Source: a virus. From it: a stretch of 64,000 nucleotides of DNA. The notes under the pieces are model-generated. The model ran no database searches. It was not told where the DNA came from and worked only from the letters and a program-made list of their open reading frames with translations. Location: the IMG/VR virus record IMGVR_UViG_3300042295_000443, positions 1 through 64,000 of that record. One strand, 5' to 3'. The translations under genes and the position numbers were made by a program. Positions 6,101 to 47,933 of this stretch are shown here, piece by piece. How positions within the stretch are numbered: position 1 is the stretch's first letter; each line of letters begins with the position of its first letter.

Positions 6101-8682
6101 TGTAATGATGTAGTTAAAAGATCTGTTCCTAAAAAAGCATCTGATAAAGCTCCTCCTAAATTAAAATAACTATTATAAGCTGCATTATATGCAGATTTAA
6201 TTCCTACTACTGGCAAATTAAATGCAGTTGAACTACTACTATTAGTGGGTAGTCCACCAGTACTCTGACCAGCAGCAGGTGTCCAACCCCAAGCAACACC
6301 TGATTGATTAGTAAAGGAACCTCCTGGTTGATTGTATACTCTTTTTCCAATTAAACTTATTATAGCTTCTCCAATACCAACTAATACTGATATTAATACA
6401 GCTGCATTAGAAAGTAATTTAAATTTAGGATGAAGAGCTGGTTCAATAAATTGTTGTGAAGAAACTCCTTGTAAATAACCATATAACTTTATTTCTGTCA
6501 TTGACAAAAATGGAGATGTAAACATTGTATCAGGAGAATGAAATGTTATCATATCTGTTGGTACATTCTGAGGAATTACAACAGTATAATCATCAGGTTT
6601 TTTAGGTATTCTAATGTATGGATCATTAAACTGATAGTTATTATCTAATGTATTAAGATTATTCATTGGAGATTGAATACAGTTAAAGGGATAGTTAGGA
6701 TATAATCCTATTCTGCCTCTAGCTACTGTTCCTTTAATTTTATAAGTTCTAAGATTATTAACCATTCCTTTGGCAATAATACTTTTATTTCCTTCCCTTG
6801 ATCCTCTTAAAATTTCAAATCCAACTATACCAGGTATATCTATACCATCATTATCTTTTGGAAGAATAATATTTTCAAATCTAACTCCTAACAATCTAAT
6901 CTTTAATCCTGTATTTGCATTTGAAACTGGATTAAAATGTACAGTGTCAATGTTTAAATAATTATCAGGAAATTTATGATGTCTAATTGGGAGTCCACAT
7001 AAATCATAAATATTAGATATTTGTGGTAAAGGACCTGTCCAACAATGAGCACTTGCATTCCAAATTTCTGGTTGGTTATCTGGATACTTTTCTGATGATT
7101 CCCAGTACCCCATATTTCCTGAAGCAATTATAACTCCTCCATCATCTGTAGTTGTTGGTATAAGTGCTGGTACTGGATAAGCATTAGCAGTATTATACAT
7201 TTCAAAAAACTGATCTGTAACATCTAAAGTGTTTAAATCATGAATAGTAGGAGTATTTGTTCTTTCAGGAACTATAGTATTGTTATAAAGATAGCTTCCT
7301 GAAGGTCTTCCCGGAATATGATATGAAGCAGATTTGTCTCCTGTATCATATACCCATCTTATAAAAAAACAATATACTTCATCTCTTAAATAACTTCCTT
7401 TATTTCCACCTTTAACATAATAGTCAGATGGATATTCTGTTGATACCCACTTAGTTCCAATTTGATTTGCCAAAGGTTGATAATTAAAATCAAACTTAGA
7501 TGTAGGACCTACCCTTAGTAAATAATTATTTACTTCAGTAATTTGATCAGACTTTTCAAAGATAGGAGTTTGCAATGGTAATAATCTAGTTGGTACTGTT
7601 ATAAGAGTATCAGGTATTTGATCTAACTCAACTACATTTGTATTTGTAGAGTATAAACCTATTTCTTTTGCAACAGTTCCCTGGTTAACATTTTGTACTA
7701 CTACTAATACAAATTCAGAAAAATTTGCTGAGTCAGCTGAAATATTAATTTGTAAAGATCCTTGTAAATCATTTGGATGCCATATTGGTTGTGTATTACT
7801 AGGAGAGAAATAATCTGTTACTCTTTGTCCTTTAATTGTATAAGCTATTAATGCAAAGTATGTTCCATTTCTTAATGTTCCTCCGGATGCTCCTAAATTA
7901 ACACTAACACAAGGTGTTTCCATTAATCTTGCTAATCTACTTTTAGGACAATCTAATGAATTTATATCAGTACATGTAATACAGGCATTTAAAGTTGGAC
8001 AGTTAGGTGGCCATACTCCAGGAGATGTTTGTACACATCCTGCATTATCATCACATATTTGTTCCCATTGTACTCCAGGCCAAAGTATTTGATTAGTACC
8101 ATCTGTATAATAATTAACAGTTGCTGGATTTGCAAGGGGAGTTCCTAACCAACTAAAAGTTGTAGGATTTGGCCAAGTTTGTGGATCTCCTACATTAAGA
8201 AATCTATCAGGATTTAAACCATCAGCCCAGTATATTTGATATGAGCAATCTTCTTTTTCTCTTGATGATCCAGAAATTAAAAATCTTTTATCAAAACCTA
8301 AACAAGCATCTTGAACAATAGGTCTATATCTACAGATGTCTTCTTCTAATAAACCTATCTCAGACATAACAGGAACTCCTAATGAATTATGTCCAGCAGT
8401 AAATATTATCCAATTGCTTGAAAATAAATGTATTACTCCTATAATATATTTATTTTGAGCTCCATTAAGTCCTGCATTAGGCATTGTTAAACCAGCAGTA
8501 GCACATAAATAATTTGAACTTTCATTTGATAATGTTCCTAACTGACCTTCTTCATTATTATTTACAGCATTGCGGGCATGTGTCCACATTCCTTCTCCAA
8601 CAAAAGATGCATCACTATCTTTATTAAGTCCTTTATTAAAACTTCTTGAAACATTTTCAGTTGTACTCTGTATTTTTGCCAT
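3148..8682 (-). CDS. Tail stabilisation / muzzle protein (crAss-like)
   Basis: 1844 aa, beta-rich. N-terminal FNKGLNKD...WTHARNA and C-terminal WISFHDWHP segments, plus position after the ring proteins, fit the Crassvirales tail stabilisation protein. Confidence 0.65.
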   Translation of the reverse strand: MAKIQSTTENVSRSFNKGLNKDSDASFVGEGMWTHARNAVNNNEEGQLGTLSNESSNYLCATAGLTMPNAGLNGAQNKYIIGVIHLFSSNWIIFTAGHNSLGVPVMSEIGLLEEDICRYRPIVQDACLGFDKRFLISGSSREKEDCSYQIYWADGLNPDRFLNVGDPQTWPNPTTFSWLGTPLANPATVNYYTDGTNQILWPGVQWEQICDDNAGCVQTSPGVWPPNCPTLNACITCTDINSLDCPKSRLARLMETPCVSVNLGASGGTLRNGTYFALIAYTIKGQRVTDYFSPSNTQPIWHPNDLQGSLQINISADSANFSEFVLVVVQNVNQGTVAKEIGLYSTNTNVVELDQIPDTLITVPTRLLPLQTPIFEKSDQITEVNNYLLRVGPTSKFDFNYQPLANQIGTKWVSTEYPSDYYVKGGNKGSYLRDEVYCFFIRWVYDTGDKSASYHIPGRPSGSYLYNNTIVPERTNTPTIHDLNTLDVTDQFFEMYNTANAYPVPALIPTTTDDGGVIIASGNMGYWESSEKYPDNQPEIWNASAHCWTGPLPQISNIYDLCGLPIRHHKFPDNYLNIDTVHFNPVSNANTGLKIRLLGVRFENIILPKDNDGIDIPGIVGFEILRGSREGNKSIIAKGMVNNLRTYKIKGTVARGRIGLYPNYPFNCIQSPMNNLNTLDNNYQFNDPYIRIPKKPDDYTVVIPQNVPTDMITFHSPDTMFTSPFLSMTEIKLYGYLQGVSSQQFIEPALHPKFKLLSNAAVLISVLVGIGEAIISLIGKRVYNQPGGSFTNQSGVAWGWTPAAGQSTGGLPTNSSSSTAFNLPVVGIKSAYNAAYNSYFNLGGALSDAFLGTDLLTTSLQTFNNASANIGTYTSPTLDKELTWNDYIPGSIGTAFDILGGISKFLYYFSEGFDLALRVLYASIRYDQYALQQIGHGFYDDMIKPNVFGSVQRYKIEDSFYIRDNIQEVQQYNAIIPDPLGFPTTQSTAYSINNLKRSDTVVVRTKTGDYVNPLFPNGINIGPAYITNAAGQYVDQSLVTLGYFENNQAVNNGWNWSTVGSPNFDNPSVPFGLSIASYYAALKIRLRNQYGQLQSIKQIAITPCEQKLSNYTVAPVGPYNCATDPGVQYFVNLIQFTPTFFGGDTFVNRYTEKNSMFFFYDWLFGQPDGFEYNYLLHQMVPEPRFWVNSKAYDSTDFAPNFSTFTPGTGNVPTDFYNLDNKRYQYADDSLSALGYPGVFRVKESFFYLAVSSVRDFFVESDVLVDFRIAGITEAEKFYDPYSYTDLNAMFNMDPQIIARGNDYRYDYSLSISKAFSQYFSAGNLQSRNYDPFVAQLCYTYYPDRLYYSLPQQNESFKDSWFVYLPNNYNEFKSQISGVKSINKSGLFITFKNASPLMYQGVDVLQTDLATKITIGDGGLFSQPGQSVTNADVPYEYGSSQNRLSVLSTPGGLFYISQNQGKIFSYSGGLKEISQSGLKWWFNLFLPYNLTIDFPTYPYLDNPVAGIGCQTLYDNENSIIFFSKKDYKLLDKWKVPGGQSVIYVPLNRKGTGDYFQIQNPTQPNGSPGAILPGTYLLGNSLLFEDASWTISFDPKNDFWISFHDWHPDLIIPNKGKFITTKNNAIWKHNDTCNSFCNFYDQNYPFEIEFPIITGQTVTTIKSIEYILECYRISKINCVDQHHVLDFNFDNAIIFNSEQASGYLNLNLFPKNNVTLSLDYPKLNANQNSFDILFSKEENKYRFNQFWDITKDRGEFPIGSDYPPTGPVIPGSTILNGNYDSQNIWETSSNGYTKILNPLNLDYNKSQTQRKKFRHYLNFLNLKKDISGDINMVVKIVNSKNQTSQR

Positions 8683-8684
8683 AA

Positions 8685-9701
8685 CTATACTAATCTATTT
8701 CTGCCAATAGGACCATAACTACTAAACATATCATAATACCTACCATACATTGCTCTTCTATTTGCTGCCCATACATTTTGTAATTCTCTAAAGTTTGGAG
8801 TATTAACTACATTAAGTGCAGCATTTCTTGCTACTCTTAATTGTGATTGTATATATTGCATTTTTTGTGCAACATCTTCTCCATTCATATATAAATTTTC
8901 AAGAATTCTAGCTTTAAATGCATATTCATAATATTCATTTATAAGATCATGATCTGGAACTAATAAATTTCCATTGTCATCTTCCATTGCTCCTTGATAA
9001 TTTAAATAAACTTTTGCTGTATCTAATGTAGTAAATAAAAAACCTCCTTTAATCCATCCTTCATTTGCTGAATTAACATATAAGTTAGGACAGTCACATT
9101 CTATTTCTTGACTTGCTCTCATTCTTAAAGGAACAACAGAATTATATGTTCTAGTTTGTCCACCTGTTACAACTTGTATAAGTTCATATTTGTCTCCCTT
9201 ACAGTTCATAAAAACTCTTGGAGGTATACAAGTATCACCATAAGGGTTTAAAGGATCATAAGCTACTGGAATTGGATCTACTATAGGAAAATTAAGATCA
9301 CAGCCTGCAGTATGATTACAAGGATTAGAATTACATGTTCTACAGTTAACTGTAATTGGAGAACATACATCTACTGTAGAGGGAACTTCTACATAAGGAA
9401 CTTCTTGAATATTTGTTCCTCCCATATCATATCCTGTATTTACAGTATAAGAACCACAAAGCATTGCATAGTTAAATACATAAAAGTCATCTGGTAATTT
9501 TACCTTACCATGACATACTTCTAATATAACTTCTTTAGTTTGATTAATTCTTAAACCAAGATCATAATTTAACTTCTTAGCTAATTTAATTAATTGCTGA
9601 GGCTCTATCATATTTTCAAGAGCAAAAGTGTTAAAATCTACAGATACATCTTCTAAGAGTTGATTAAAAGATCTATACCTAAGTGTGTAGTTAAAATCCA
9701 T
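8685..9701 (-). CDS. Tail ring / tubular protein with Cys-rich insertion
   Basis: 338 aa. KVKLPDDF and VYLNYQG..EDDNGNLLVPD motifs resemble crAss-like ring proteins; synteny agrees. Confidence 0.5.
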   Translation of the reverse strand: MDFNYTLRYRSFNQLLEDVSVDFNTFALENMIEPQQLIKLAKKLNYDLGLRINQTKEVILEVCHGKVKLPDDFYVFNYAMLCGSYTVNTGYDMGGTNIQEVPYVEVPSTVDVCSPITVNCRTCNSNPCNHTAGCDLNFPIVDPIPVAYDPLNPYGDTCIPPRVFMNCKGDKYELIQVVTGGQTRTYNSVVPLRMRASQEIECDCPNLYVNSANEGWIKGGFLFTTLDTAKVYLNYQGAMEDDNGNLLVPDHDLINEYYEYAFKARILENLYMNGEDVAQKMQYIQSQLRVARNAALNVVNTPNFRELQNVWAANRRAMYGRYYDMFSSYGPIGRNRLV

Positions 9702-43125: not shown

Positions 43126-43625
43126 AATAAATAAGTTTGTCACAAATGTATAAATATTTATAATACTATAAAGCATAATATAGTTTACAAAACTATACTA
43201 TTTTGTAACTTATATGTTACATTATGCATGCATATTCTGGAAAAATTCATGCAGGTTATATACTTATAGTGGAAAATTCCCATCACTAAAACGGTTATAA
43301 TCCTGTTATGGTGGAAAATTCTTACACAAAGTTATATGGTTTTTTAGTATGTGAGATGTAGAGGTTGGGTGCTATGATACAACCCCCCGCCAAATCCTGT
43401 GGAGGTGGTACCCCCCACCAACTTGAGGAGTGTGTCATAAATTCTAGGAAATATTTTAGAAAAAAATCCTGCTGGGAAAGAAACCTAGCTGCTACAACAG
43501 GAGAGGAGAGACAAGAGGTGACATGCTATGTCTACTACATGTACTATGCTAGTGATGTGCTAGCAAGAGGAGGGAGGCAGGGTGCTATATAATAGGGGTG
43601 TGTACTATATGTATAATATAGTATA

Positions 43626-43660
43626 GCCTTCGGCAGATTATATAACAGCTTATAACTACT
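43626..43660 (+). promoter_or_regulatory. Early hairpin-promoter repeat 1
   Basis: GCCTTCGGCAG-N7-AACAGCTT-ATA-ACTACT. Confidence 0.7.
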
Positions 43661-43684
43661 ATGGAACCAACTAAACTTTGTATC

Positions 43685-43753
43685 ATGATTGTATATGCTG
43701 TAATAAACGGAGTAGTTACTGTTAAGGAATGGGTGTTAAATCCTAATGCTTAA
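43685..43753 (+). CDS. 22-aa peptide MIVYAVINGVVTVKEWVLNPNA (30 aa if ATG 43661 is used)
   Basis: Lies between repeat 1 and a hairpin at 43759-43781. Leader AACCAACTAAACT is shared with the ORF at 47265. Confidence 0.45.
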   Translation: MIVYAVINGVVTVKEWVLNPNA

Positions 43754-43793
43754 TGTTTGAGGGAGCTGTAATAGCTCTCTTAACTATGCTTAA

Positions 43794-43828
43794 GCCTTCG
43801 GCAGATGGTACTACAGCTTATAACTGCT
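43794..43828 (+). promoter_or_regulatory. Early hairpin-promoter repeat 2
   Basis: GCCTTCGGCAG-N7-TACAGCTT-ATA-ACTGCT. Confidence 0.7.
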
Positions 43829-43869
43829 AAGGATATATTATATTTATTAACCATCTAAAACTTAAAAAG

Positions 43870-44136
43870 ATGAGCAATGTTAAAGGATTCTTAATCAGTG
43901 TAAGTGACACTGTAAAAACAAACACTAATGGAACTGAATTCAGATCTTGCATAGTAGCCATTGAGGGTGAAAACTATTTTGCAAAAATCTGGGAGAAATC
44001 TGTTTCCAAAGCTGTTGTTGGCAATGAGTACACTGTTGAAATGATTGTTGATGGTGAAAACTTATGGTTAACATTGTTAACTGGTGTTACTGCAACTATT
44101 GCAACACCTAATATGCTTGCACACCTACTTAAATAA
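43870..44136 (+). CDS. Small OB-fold-like protein, paralogue A
   Basis: Five-strand pattern; near-identical motifs to 44967..45242. Confidence 0.6.
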   Translation: MSNVKGFLISVSDTVKTNTNGTEFRSCIVAIEGENYFAKIWEKSVSKAVVGNEYTVEMIVDGENLWLTLLTGVTATIATPNMLAHLLK

Positions 44137-44143
44137 TAGGTAG

Positions 44144-44174
44144 AAGATGACACCCTTAATTGGGTGTTATCTTT
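44144..44174 (+). terminator. Terminator hairpin
   Basis: AAGATGACACCC-ttaatt-GGGTGTTATCTTT. Confidence 0.65.
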
Positions 44175-44182
44175 ATAGTTAA

Positions 44183-44217
44183 GCCTTCGGCAGGAAATGC
44201 TACAACTTAAAACTACT
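44183..44217 (+). promoter_or_regulatory. Early hairpin-promoter repeat 3
   Basis: GCCTTCGGCAG-N7-TACAACTT-AAA-ACTACT. Confidence 0.7.
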
Positions 44218-44250
44218 CATAGTATTAATGTTAAATTTAAACTATATATC

Positions 44251-44454
44251 ATGGACACAACAACTGTATTACAAATTATTGCTATGCTTGAAGGTGATGC
44301 AAAATCATACATTAAACACCTTGATAATACTAATGACCCTTTTGAAACAGGGTACATTAAAGGTTATCATGATGCTTTAACAAAGCATGCCCACATGCTG
44401 CAAGAGTATATTGAACTGCAAGTAAATTATGCAGAGAATGCATTAGGGGAGTAA
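44251..44454 (+). CDS. Small helical early protein
   Basis: Likely start MDTTTV at 44251, downstream of repeat 3. Confidence 0.6.
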   Translation: MDTTTVLQIIAMLEGDAKSYIKHLDNTNDPFETGYIKGYHDALTKHAHMLQEYIELQVNYAENALGE

Positions 44455-44465
44455 TCCCCTTTTTT
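44446..44465 (+). terminator. Terminator GGGGA-GTAA-TCCCC-U tract
   Basis: Perfect stem with GNRA loop and T run; identical hairpin at 46129. Confidence 0.75.
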
Positions 44466-44491
44466 AAACTGTAATCCCTAAATTAAAATAT

Positions 44492-44596
44492 ATGTTAATA
44501 GTTATTGGAAATGTAATGTTTGTTGCTATAATAGTGTTTATTGCCCGTTGTGGCTACAAGCTAGAAAAGGCTGATGAAGAAAAGGAAAGGGCTTAG
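44492..44596 (+). CDS. 34-aa single-TM peptide
   Basis: MLIVIGNVMFVAIIVFIARCGYKLEKADEEKERA, followed by a hairpin plus T run (44577-44611). Confidence 0.45.
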   Translation: MLIVIGNVMFVAIIVFIARCGYKLEKADEEKERA

Positions 44597-44672
44597 GCTC
44601 TTTCTTTTTTTGCTCAATCATTCATTCTTATGGAGTGGCTTGCGCCACACCTTTTATGTCTTTCTTTCAATG

Positions 44673-44707
44673 GCCTTCGGCAGGAGTCTCTACAGCTTAG
44701 GACTTCT
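44673..44707 (+). promoter_or_regulatory. Early hairpin-promoter repeat 4
   Basis: GCCTTCGGCAG-N7-TACAGCTT-AGG-ACTTCT. Confidence 0.7.
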
Positions 44708-44811
44708 GTGGAGTGTGCCTTTGCCTATGAGGATAAGATGTTACACACTTATAAAGTTCTCTCTGAAAAAGAACTTGGACAACTACATAGTAATATGTGG
44801 TTGTTTTTTTT
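44708..44811 (+). ncRNA. Candidate small RNA of about 100 nt
   Basis: Between repeat 4 and a terminator; stems AGTGTG/CACACT and AAGTTCT/AGAACTT; no credible complete ORF. Confidence 0.4.
44780..44811 (+). terminator. Intrinsic terminator
   Basis: CAACTACATA-GTAA-TATGTGGTTG followed by a T run. Confidence 0.75.
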
Positions 44812-44877
44812 GGTAGTTCAATGCTTGGCAGCTGCATAGTAAGTACTGTGTAGCAAAACTAATTTATTCTAGATTGG

Positions 44878-44912
44878 GCCTCCGGCAGGTGCCTTTACAG
44901 CTTTCTACTGCT
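44878..44912 (+). promoter_or_regulatory. Early hairpin-promoter repeat 5
   Basis: GCCTCCGGCAG-N7-TACAGCTT-TCT-ACTGCT. Confidence 0.7.
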
Positions 44913-44966
44913 GTGGATATAAGATTGTGAGAAAGCCTCACAACAAAACCAACCCCTATTTGCAAA

Positions 44967-45242
44967 ATGGAGAAAATGTTAAGAGGTACTCTTATCAGTT
45001 TTTCTAATGAGGCAAAAGCCAATGTGAATGGTACTCAGTACCGTTCTTGCATTGTCAATATTGGAGGTGAAAATTACTTTGCAAAGCTTTGGGAGAAATC
45101 CTTGGCTAAGGCAGTAATTGGAACTGAGTACAATATTGAGGCTGTAGTAGATGGTGATAACTTGTGGTTAACGTGCCTTACGGGCGTTAGTGCAACTATT
45201 GCTACTCCTGCTACATTCGCTGCTTTGTTAGCAGAATTGTAG
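44967..45242 (+). CDS. Small OB-fold-like protein, paralogue B
   Basis: NGTQYRSCIV..GGENYFAKLWEKS..KAVIG.EY....VDGDNLWLT.LTGV.ATIATP shared with 43870..44136. Confidence 0.6.
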   Translation: MEKMLRGTLISFSNEAKANVNGTQYRSCIVNIGGENYFAKLWEKSLAKAVIGTEYNIEAVVDGDNLWLTCLTGVSATIATPATFAALLAEL

Positions 45243-45306
45243 GAAGTATCCTAGACTGAGTAAGACTCGGAGTGTACCACTACTTGGCAACAGAAGTGGA
45301 AAATAT

Positions 45307-45346
45307 TAATGAACTACATAGAAATATGTGGTTCATTACTTTTTTT
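45307..45346 (+). terminator. Intrinsic terminator
   Basis: AATGAACTACATA-GAAA-TATGTGGTTCATT then T run; paralogue of the 44780 terminator. Confidence 0.7.
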
Positions 45347-45351
45347 AAACA

Positions 45352-45378
45352 GCCTTTGGCAGAAAGAGTATACAAAAT
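45352..45378 (+). promoter_or_regulatory. Degenerate promoter repeat 6
   Basis: GCCTTTGGCAG-N8-TACAAAAT; both the loop and the downstream box are mutated. Confidence 0.4.
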
Positions 45379-45450
45379 AAAAGATAATATTTGCCTTGGC
45401 AAGTACTAATAGGTACTGTGTAGCAAATAGTCTATATATATACTTAACCG

Positions 45451-45486
45451 GCCTCCGGCAGGTGGGGCGTACAGCTTTCAACTTCT
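45451..45486 (+). promoter_or_regulatory. Early hairpin-promoter repeat 7
   Basis: GCCTCCGGCAG-N8-TACAGCTT-TCA-ACTTCT. Confidence 0.7.
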
Positions 45487-45841
45487 TTGAGTGTGGTTAG
45501 GCCACGGTCATCTAGACCTACTAACCACCTATGTAACTATTAAAACTAGATTATTATAACAAAGTCTCCAGCCTGTGCAACAATGTGACTTTGGTACTGA
45601 TAATCAGGTAGTTATAAAATGAGATATGTGAGAAAAAGAGGAAGAATGAGATTAACTATTAACCTATCCAAGAATTTATAGGCAGAAATAGTCAGCAGAA
45701 ATGGTCTTAAAGCCTAATATTATATAGTATATAGCTAAAACAGACTTAGTATATACATTAAGAATAGTATTATCTCTTTCTATAGTTAGAGTAACATAAT
45801 AACTTATTCCGGAATTAAATAAATTTAAAACTATATATACT

Positions 45842-46138
45842 ATGAAAGATTTCATTCACACAGGTTGGTGGGGACCTACATTAACTACCACTGAAGATCC
45901 TGAATTAAAAGTTATTGAAAGAGATAATGGTCATTCTTGGACTATGAACTTTTATGTTGGTCATCATTTAATTGATTGCATAAATATGGAATGGTGCCGT
46001 GGTACTAAACTAGACAAAGATGTTCTTAGACTTCCTGTGTATAGTGATGAAGGTATCTACTTAGGTAGTCTTGCTAAAAGATTAGAAGATGCAATTAATG
46101 TTATGCATCCAGAACCTATGTTTCATACAGGGGAGTAA
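45842..46138 (+). CDS. Hypothetical early protein
   Basis: ORF track; A/T-rich leader. Confidence 0.6.
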   Translation: MKDFIHTGWWGPTLTTTEDPELKVIERDNGHSWTMNFYVGHHLIDCINMEWCRGTKLDKDVLRLPVYSDEGIYLGSLAKRLEDAINVMHPEPMFHTGE

Positions 46139-46147
46139 TCCCCTTTT
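46129..46147 (+). terminator. Terminator GGGGA-GTAA-TCCCC-TTTT
   Basis: Identical to the 44446 hairpin. Confidence 0.7.
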
Positions 46148-46154
46148 ATTTAGT

Positions 46155-47065
46155 ATTGTTGCCTTTTCTTTAACCAGGCAAGTATCCAGTAAGTTGCTGG
46201 CGTGGGACTGTCCAGTATAGTTACAAGACAGTAGGGTTTGGTCTATTTCCCTTAAAGACCATTAAGTACACAATGTTGTTACCCTCAGAGTTTAGATACT
46301 CATGGTGTGTGCGTTAAACCTATTATAACGGTTACTAAAACAACAGGTCAGCTCTCGTGACCAAAGGATAAACCAGTAATGGTATAAAGTGATATGTTGG
46401 TAACATATTGCGCAGGAGTAATCCTGTCTACAGAAGAGTATTGTAACTACCTACATTTTGGTGTGCTTGTGGCCTAACGGTTGATGCATAGAGATGTAGA
46501 CTTTCTAACAGGTAGGAAGTTGAGACAGAAATGTCAATAGAAAGTGCAATAGGTAACAATAGTACATCTCGCCAAGATGGAAGTTGTTATTAGTGAGATG
46601 TTCTTTATGCTACTAGAAATAGTGTGTATTTACATCAAACAGTGAGTAAGCTTGGCCGCTTAAAGCAATGTGAAGTTATAACTAAGGTACTCAAAAGGTA
46701 TTATGTTATATAAAGTTGGAACTACTTCACATTATTTCCTGAACCGCATTTAAACTAAAAACTTAAAAGCAAAGAATGTTCTAGCACTTATTAGTGAAAA
46801 TGCTCTTATCCTACTGCAATATGTAGGTACAGAAGACCCGCAAGGTTTATGTAAAGGGACTGATTAATATCTTAACTAGCAGTAGACATACTGTGTATCC
46901 CGTAAGGAAGTTGGTATGAAAGGAAACTTATTGCACTAATATGTAAAAGTATGATGATACTATAAATCATTGAGCATGTTGTTTACTTATAGAAATATAA
47001 GTGTGTATGAGGAGAAGAAATTTTCCAAAAATAGCAACATGAAAGGTCAATACTCATCCTTTCAA
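46155..47065 (+). ncRNA. Giant structured non-coding RNA (GOLLD/ROOL size class)
   Basis: About 900 nt without an ORF in the track. Many stems with GNRA loops and G-U pairs on the + strand. Long-range helices 46363-46369/47056-47062 and 46436-46443/47048-47055. Confidence 0.7.
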
Positions 47066-47238
47066 TAGTAATGCACCATTTCTACTTCACAAGGGTAGAC
47101 AGTTGTAATGTATGAACGCAACACTACTAGATTTTATCACTAGAAAGATGTTACATAGGGTTTTAATTAAAGAAGACTGATAATCTTTTTTATAACCTGC
47201 CGGAAACTTACATTATAACTGAGTGCAGAGTGATATTA
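47063..47238 (+). ncRNA. Twister-like self-cleaving ribozyme 1 (P1 type, long P5 insert)
   Basis: UAA-UGC-A-CC ... P4 UCUAC/GUAGA with loop UUCACAAGG ... 13-bp P5 ... GCA-GA-GUGA. Pseudoknots UCAC/GUGA and CC/GG. Confidence 0.65.
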
Positions 47239-47264
47239 AATAGTAACCAACTAAACTATAATAT

Positions 47265-47417
47265 ATGATTTTTCAATTGATTGCTCAAATTATTAAAGAT
47301 GCTGATAAAGTATCAAACAAGAAATTAGATAAAGCTGCTTATGCAGATTATCTCAATACTCTTTCTCTAGATGATCTACTATTCCTTAAGGATAGTTATA
47401 GTTCAGAGTTAGTATAG
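47265..47417 (+). CDS. 50-aa protein between the two ribozymes
   Basis: MIFQLIAQIIKDADKVSNKKLDKAAYADYLNTLSLDDLLFLKDSYSSELV; below ORF cutoff; A-rich leader. Confidence 0.55.
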   Translation: MIFQLIAQIIKDADKVSNKKLDKAAYADYLNTLSLDDLLFLKDSYSSELV

Positions 47418-47450: not shown

Positions 47451-47577
47451 TTAGTAATACACCACTTCTCATTCCCAAGGTGAGACAGTTGTAATAGTAA
47501 GAGAGCAGGTTGCTTAGTCACACCTGCGGTAAATAATACTAAATCTTACACATTACAACTGAGTACAGAGGGATAAC
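47451..47577 (+). ncRNA. Twister-like ribozyme 2 (P2 mismatched, possibly attenuated)
   Basis: UAA-UAC-A-CC ... P4 UCUCA/UGAGA with loop UUCCCAAGG ... P5 CAGUUGUAAU/AUUACAACUG ... ACA-GA-GGGA. Pseudoknot UCCC/GGGA covaries with copy 1. Confidence 0.55.
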
Positions 47578-47693
47578 AAGGGTCATAACCTTGGGGCATA
47601 ACTAAGAGCTAGTAAGAAGACATAGAGTTCATTTTATTATGAAAGATACAACTCTTATTAGAACAACTCTTAGTTAATGCTTTATAAATATGT

Positions 47694-47933
47694 ATGAAAT
47701 ATATACAATTTATAATTGAAAGTAATTCTAATAAGAAATTAGATGCTTTCACTAAAGAATGTATTAATGCCATCAGAAGATCTGGTGCTGTTAAAGCTGG
47801 TCCAATACCTTTTAAAGGTAAAAGATTATTTTATTGTTACAGTCCTAATGGAAAGACTATTGATAGACTTATGTCATTAAAATGTCCTAAAGGTGTGTTA
47901 GTAACAATAAATTCTTTGGAAAATCCTCAATAA
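47694..47933 (+). CDS. Ribosomal protein S10 (uS10/NusE) homologue lacking the ribosome-binding loop
   Basis: SGAVKAGPIPF-KG-KRL...SPNGKTIDRLMSLKCPKGVLVTI aligns with S10 GA.V.GPIPL...(K/L)RL....PT.KTVDALM.L.L..GV.V.I. Confidence 0.75.
   Translation: MKYIQFIIESNSNKKLDAFTKECINAIRRSGAVKAGPIPFKGKRLFYCYSPNGKTIDRLMSLKCPKGVLVTINSLENPQ

Follow-up and report, generated by a model that had tools for sequence, protein, structure and literature searches.

A divergent lineage of GOLLD RNA in lake and marine crAss-like phages

What kind of RNA, if any, is specified by a gene-free stretch of about 900 nt that is dense in potential base pairing? The stretch lies within the first 64,000 nt of IMG/VR record IMGVR_UViG_3300042295_000443 (the window), and a preliminary description of the DNA had proposed either a divergent member of the GOLLD or ROOL RNAs or a new class. 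Our analysis places window ~46152-47069 (+ strand), with a probability of roughly 0.87, as one ~900-nt non-coding RNA of the GOLLD family, from a divergent AT-rich lineage in lake and marine crAss-like phages. It is a real RNA and a divergent branch of a known family, not a new kind of RNA. GOLLD itself has reportedly been known since 2009, from the work of Weinberg and colleagues; the RNA described here is a divergent lineage of it below the Rfam cut-off.

Identification of the RNA

We examined the coding potential of the stretch under standard and recoded stops, because crAss-like phages sometimes recode their stop codons. In agreement with the preliminary description, no open reading frame of 60 aa or more is present across 46155-47065 under table 11, with TAG read as Q or with TGA read as W. 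Coding under recoded stops was rejected, as the longest stop-to-stop frame (127 aa, TAG=Q) lies on the wrong strand.

We scanned the window with Rfam models, as the preliminary description had advised. In E-value mode, RF02032 (GOLLD) matched 46668-47060 (+) over model positions 1-416 of 416, with 88 bits and E = 5e-23. A second run confirmed the match (E = 5.9e-25), and the distant relative L003 scored 87.5 bits with the GOLLD model. No other Rfam model, OLE included, came near this result, and the ROOL, group I and group II intron models gave no match in the window even at E up to 10. RF02032 is restricted to the conserved GOLLD 3' domain, as the 5' domain is known to vary (PMC12286853, PMC12990946), and thus the match spans exactly the part that the model can cover.

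At gathering scores, the Rfam scan of the whole window gave zero matches, and GOLLD was visible only in E-value mode. The gathering score for GOLLD, an annotation cut-off rather than a biological property, is 150 bits, compared to 88 bits here, and curated annotation would miss the RNA. Two canonical phage GOLLDs from IMG/VR, used as positive controls, scored 226 and 180 bits; in the 226-bit RNA (L158, 6954-7394, - strand), the linker encloses a complete tRNA (7252-7324). The window's RNA does not differ in architecture; its score is below the threshold because of divergence, AT-richness and shortened hairpins. Kretsch et al. collected GOLLDs with cmsearch at E < 1e-5 (PMC12286853), a threshold that the window match passes. 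A blastn search against 50,697 deposited phages found no match.

Folding was compared to dinucleotide shuffles for both strands, giving a z score of -4.2 for the + strand and -2.1 for the - strand. The GNRA loops and invariant G-U pairs are compatible only with the + strand, and we assigned the strand because of the invariant G-U pairs.

Architecture and covariation

Homologues were recovered by a neighbouring-protein search and three DNA patterns. Matches to the pattern TTACTTNNNGAAANNNAAGTG in IMG/VR were mostly due to chance, as were 13 of the 22 matches to pattern GCCAANNNGGAAGTTGTTAT and one of five to a second pattern. The collection comprises 20 distinct sequences, taken from viral and metagenome contigs of lakes and the sea, and it divides into two clades: clade A, with 16 sequences including the window, whose other members are 83-93% identical to it, and clade B, with four sequences at ~55% identity, one of them from a Tara Oceans contig. 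The 5' and 3' halves occur together in 20 of 20 homologues.

The preliminary description had called for a covariation check on such a collection should no model match, and on the 20 homologues the consensus helices do covary. RNAalifold predicted 180 pairs from the whole-RNA alignment, 82 of them with compensatory double changes. To evaluate the GOLLD structure itself, Rfam consensus pairs were carried onto window coordinates via the cmscan alignment and then counted on the 20 sequences: pairing holds in 89.6% of cells, and 40 of 90 pairs carry compensatory changes, a result equalled in 0 of 500 shuffles. When partners were slid by one to three columns as a control, pairing fell to 36-46%. Thirteen of the 15 GOLLD 3'-domain helices are kept (P14-P27), with one hairpin in a shifted register. 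The full-length 3' match, the helices kept with covariation and the conserved loop motifs together identify this as a GOLLD RNA.

Alignment A2 shows the two-domain layout: a variable 5' part (46182-46345), a 5' core (46346-46667), a variable linker (46733-46785) and a conserved 3' domain. The 3' domain begins on the + strand with a first hairpin (46668-46732, model positions 1-66) that has an invariant UCAAAAG loop and whose helices 1 and 2 carry seven and four covarying pairs. The short linker that follows (46733-46785, +) differs in sequence and length among relatives, contains no tRNA and ends in a conserved AAAGCAAAG motif. Canonical GOLLDs have a linker at the corresponding place that is disordered and sometimes tRNA-bearing. 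The body of the 3' domain (46786-47063, +; model positions 140-416) is supported by covariation and includes a long-range helix (46786-95/46935-44) with eight covarying pairs, a pseudoknot (AUGCUC, 46800-05/GAGCAU, 46972-77) with pairing at 100% and covariation in three pairs, hairpins whose GCAA and GAAA loops are invariant, and a terminal hairpin (47041-46/47058-63). At the pseudoknot site, the Rfam consensus has complementary variable letters. Invariant or nearly so are the UCAAAAG loop, the AAAGCAAA(A)G linker end, the GCAA loop and the UUACUU...GAAA...AAGUG hairpin. A loop-junction contact considered by eye, GCAAU/AUUGC (46816-20/46930-34), had no covariation and was dropped.

The RNA unit is limited upstream by the terminator-like hairpin and T-run of a 98-aa ORF (46129-46150, +); an identical copy of the hairpin lies at 44445-44463. 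Among relatives with the same leader type, conservation starts at ~46152, just 3' of this hairpin. In the alignments the leader spans 46152-46181 (+), and a hairpin read from the sequence, TTGCC/GGCAA, occupies 46159-63/46177-81; other relatives have an unrelated leader, likewise with a 6-bp hairpin. The aligned variable 5' module (46182-46345, +) holds on the same strand a hairpin CCAG/CTGG (46186-89/46197-200), a possible pseudoknot at 46233-46260 (AGGG/CCCT with GGTCT/AGACC) and the helix TGTTGTT/AACAACA (46274-80/46339-45). Two of these pairings had been proposed as possible pseudoknots, and both hold up: in clade A, pairing of TGTTGTT/AACAACA is at 100% and one of its pairs covaries, and AGGG/CCCT has one compensatory change, in the relative L089.

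The conserved 5'-domain core (46346-46667, +), delimited by alignment and RNAalifold, is present in both clades and rich in covarying helices, among them 46439-44/46546-51, and has GNRA hairpins at 46372, 46412, 46524 and 46612 (+). The outer part at 46182-46345 is modular, with at least four unrelated versions on near-identical cores in clade A; clade B lacks any version of it and has an altogether different sequence instead. The 5' half covaries and is specific to this lineage, and relatives exchange its outermost ~190 nt. Searches of the canonical L158 and L159 RNAs for a matching 5' domain, by nhmmer with the family profile and by a covariance model of 46346-46500 (R1), found nothing. By eye, the order AUAA, hairpin, (A)AAAG, hairpin, hairpin appears common to the window, L158 and L159, a resemblance that may serve as a lead.

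All five GNRA hairpins and all complementary segments that the preliminary description listed are present at their coordinates. Its ten local helices, counted together on the 20 homologues, are 90.7% paired with 24 pairs changed on both sides, and 0 of 500 shuffles equal this; two of them nevertheless fail. The helix 46564-72/46593-601 is 83% paired without compensation, and the covarying pairs in its place are CATCT/AGATG (46565-69/46575-79) and GGTAACAAT/GTTGTTATT (46552-60/46583-91). The helix 46811-17/46879-85 is 62% paired and gives way to the covarying hairpins CCTAC/GTAGG (46810-14/46823-27) and CAGTA/TACTG (46880-84/46889-93). Two long-range helices had also been proposed, closing a domain of about 700 nt. 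One of these, AAAGGAT/ATCCTTT, is 82% paired without compensation, and its rival is the terminal hairpin GAAAGG/CCTTTC (47041-46/47058-63), with G-C to A-U covariation at two positions. The other, GAGTATTG/CAATACTC, is 92% paired without compensation and is broken in clade B; its 5' strand is part of the covarying helix 46439-44/46546-51. All four helices are unsupported because covarying local alternatives take their place. With neither long-range helix compensated, the ~700-nt domain is replaced by the two-domain layout of GOLLD.

Phage context, expression and the 3' flank

The window is part of an 89-kb IMG/VR viral contig that is ~75% complete. Its gene products include a Crassvirus muzzle protein (Pfam PF25731), portal, terminase and capsid, and the nearest deposited relatives of the terminase, at ~24% identity, are crAss-like phages of Flavobacterium, Bacteroides and Cellulophaga. 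The host of the RNA is a crAss-like phage. At the clade B loci, portal, terminase and other genes are distantly related to those of the window's phage, placing the lineage within a broad crAss-like group. Three relatives keep the upstream 98-aa ORF with no GOLLD anywhere, two of them at least 94% complete, and their early regions are mosaic. The absence of GOLLD from near-complete relatives with mosaic early regions shows that the RNA is an accessory module.

The RNA lies in a + strand region of small ORFs that begins at ~43200. A repeat, AGCCTTCGGCAG-N7-TACAGCTTATAACTNCT, recurs there in five to six copies (43625, 43793, 44182, 44672, 44877 and 45470; window 43625-45489), each preceding a small ORF, and the copies are candidate phage-specific promoters. 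A scan for sigma-70-type promoters found sites no more frequent than in shuffles. A 196-nt direct repeat of 71% identity (43914-44109 and 45014-45209) corresponds to paralogous small ORFs at 43870-44136 and 44967-45242, for which no Pfam match was found. Downstream of the GOLLD RNA by 0.6 kb, a 79-aa ORF (47694-47933) has a weak match to the N-terminal 40 residues of ribosomal protein S10 (PF00338; E = 1.5e-5, 25.6 bits compared to a cut-off of 21.2). In the clade B locus L003, the GOLLD RNA is directly upstream of a 632-aa protein (6831-8768, - strand) with no Pfam match; the homologue of this protein in the window's phage is 26 kb from the RNA (G000, 73187-75085).

As the preliminary description had noted, the window has no tRNA, and ARAGORN found none there or over the other 25 kb of the 89-kb contig, itself ~75% complete. 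Several relatives each have one tRNA-Arg(TCT) in their early region: L041 (6886-6960), L080, L136, L139, L143 and L123. In five relatives the tRNA-Arg lies 2-6 kb downstream of the GOLLD RNA, and in L123 it is ~0.35 kb downstream of the homologue of the 98-aa ORF.

Metatranscriptome contigs from four lake studies contain the RNA, and single contigs span both domains (46331-47050 and 46364-47064). These contigs are consistent with an expressed RNA; they are silent on strand, ends and level and are no proof of transcription. In three runs, metatranscriptome cover was little or none at 45400-45490, 46219-46283 and 47129-47400. Contigs confined to the RNA had a k-mer depth of 140-680, compared to 6 or less for flank contigs. 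We rejected this contrast as evidence of expression, as there is one depth figure per contig, the runs were chosen for holding the stretch, and the flanks are mosaic between strains, so that relatives' flank contigs do not align. Contig ends were likewise rejected as a guide to the RNA 3' end, since their positions disagree (47006, ~47057 and beyond 47064).

Directly 3' of the RNA, most clade A relatives have an element of ~70-170 nt with a twister-like layout. In the window it spans 47064-47238 (+) and has a ~100-nt insert in P5. We labeled the element by reference to the twister consensus, which has a U-A cleavage site, stems P2 and P4, and pseudoknots involving loop 4. Covariation is seen across a set of 16 distinct copies. 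P2 is paired at five of five positions, with covariation, except in the second window copy, which pairs at only three of five; P4 and P5 also covary. The loop-4 pseudoknot is UCAC/GUGA in six copies and UCCC/GGGA in ten, a perfect covariation, and the second twister-like pseudoknot is non-canonical and invariant (CC/GG). Rfam twister models matched neither the two window copies, at E up to 10, nor a compact 67-nt copy (L041:4740-4880). One relative's contig lacks exactly 47065-47240, and L149 and L151 diverge from that same point, indicating a sharp boundary between the RNA and the twister-like element. Some relatives have the GOLLD RNA with no twister-like element. The predicted cut, U47069|A47070, is 6 nt past the last GOLLD helix and would leave a 6-nt tail.

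A second twister-like copy lies at window 47452-47576; over its 5' part, identity to the first is 84%. Changes in its P4 (TCTAC/GTAGA compared to TCTCA/TGAGA) and in its pseudoknot are compensatory, only three of five P2 pairs form, and the two copies bracket a 50-aa ORF (47265-47417). A 156-nt contig from one lake RNA library, within 47497-47646 and with a k-mer depth of 82, spans the P5 insert and 3' part of the second copy plus ~70 nt beyond; it may represent a second small stable RNA. Two related phages lacking the GOLLD RNA carry other ribozymes in the same early region, Hatchet in L122 (3146-3287, 66 bits) and Pistol in L124 (6351-6419, 43 bits), both above Rfam gathering scores. Self-cleaving RNAs thus seem to have a hot spot in this early region.

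Competing explanations and comparison with known systems

A new giant RNA class, unrelated to GOLLD and resembling it by chance or convergence, would account for a score below the Rfam gathering score, a blank default scan and the lack of detectable similarity between the 5' half and canonical GOLLD 5' domains. Set against this are the full-length model match (E = 5e-23), the GOLLD helices, long-range helix and pseudoknot site kept with covariation, and conserved loop motifs that are correctly placed. This reading is largely refuted and keeps a very slight chance. Of the two options in the preliminary description, the divergent member, a GOLLD with E = 5e-23 and covarying helices, stands and the new class falls. 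The locus could also hold two adjoining RNAs, one of ~600 nt at the 5' side and one of ~300 nt at the 3' side, as the halves of solved GOLLDs fold as separate domains and the 5' end is modular. The halves stay together in all 20 homologues, however, with no terminator or promoter between them; single contigs from RNA libraries cover both, and the Rfam match starts at 46668, within the proposed first RNA. We consider such a division very unlikely.

In place of a stand-alone RNA, the stretch might be a cis-acting leader or untranslated region controlling the downstream small ORFs, since a same-strand 50-aa ORF lies downstream and is contiguous with the RNA in one relative's RNA contig. That reading is exceedingly improbable given that downstream genes vary among relatives, that the clade B neighbour is different, that a self-cleaving-type element separates RNA and ORF in most relatives, and that size and GOLLD membership both speak against a leader. 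The large size, GNRA loops and surrounding ribozyme-like elements could likewise bring to mind an intron of group I or II, or what is left of some other mobile ribozyme, but no intron family matches at E up to 10, and there is neither an interrupted host gene nor an intron-encoded ORF; the chance of this is practically negligible.

For the GOLLD RNA identified here, we propose a pathway whose last step, cage assembly, is modeled on solved relatives. The RNA would be made during infection, and the adjoining element, which is twister-like, would produce its 3' end by self-cleavage at 47069/47070. About 10-14 copies could then come together, with no protein involved, as a closed cage in which the 3' domains would make up the ring and the 5' domains the caps. 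The linker in the window's phage is short and tRNA-free, and storage of an embedded tRNA is therefore not the role there. As a guess made with low confidence, the cage might sequester or scaffold a host or phage component of translation or transcription. A more specific proposal, which we hold tentatively and think somewhat less probable than its converse, is that GOLLD here is a defined processing unit. A variant twister would cut 6 nt past the last helix and leave uniform 2',3'-cyclic-phosphate ends, and an exchangeable outer 5' module, with at least four versions on near-identical cores, would tune cap geometry and hence cage copy number. If true, GOLLD RNAs would have exact ends as they occur in nature, and the naturally occurring cap variants would form a series for testing the control of cage size.

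Few natural RNAs are known to form a cage without protein, and GOLLD is among them. The lineage described here extends GOLLD to lake and sea crAss-like phages, and the Rfam cut-off hides this whole branch. A compact, tRNA-free GOLLD with a likely self-cut 3' end and swapped 5' modules helps to define which parts a cage needs, and the lineage is useful for seeking the function of GOLLD in a phage group abundant in nature.

Three known RNA systems bear comparison. The twister comparison concerns the flanking element only: apparently shared are the U-AA site, P2, P4, an optional P5, an AAG conserved in loop 4, and a GA with a pseudoknot strand after it. The element differs in having no Rfam model match, a two-base CC/GG pseudoknot in place of the usual pair, and P5 inserts of up to ~120 nt. 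ROOL is, like the window's RNA, a large, ornate, phage-associated RNA, and solved ROOL members form cages. The ROOL cage is an 8-mer. In ROOL, the 5' and 3' parts intertwine and do not make up two domains (PMC12286853), whereas the window's RNA has two domains and no ROOL match at E up to 10.

The closest likeness is to GOLLD (RF02032). Shared features are a 3' domain with the same helix order, the UCAAAAG loop, the AAAGCAAA(A)G linker end and GCAA and GAAA loops; the long-range helix, the pseudoknot site, and variability of the 5' domain and of the linker that follows the first 3'-domain hairpin; and a size of ~0.9 kb, phage carriage and lake origin. Compared to canonical GOLLDs, the window's RNA scores 88 bits rather than 180-226, is AT-rich and has several shortened 3'-domain hairpins, and its 5' domain is unalignable by sequence or covariance model. 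tRNA genes beside or inside GOLLD are frequent but not obligatory, and here the ~50-nt linker is tRNA-free, with no tRNA within 89 kb. The two halves of solved GOLLDs are separately folded domains, and the env-38 GOLLD forms a 14-mer by cryo-EM (PMC12286853); the S. agalactiae GOLLD forms a 12-mer (reviewed in PMC12990946). In the window's lineage, GOLLD is carried by crAss-like phages and has a twister-like element on its 3' side.
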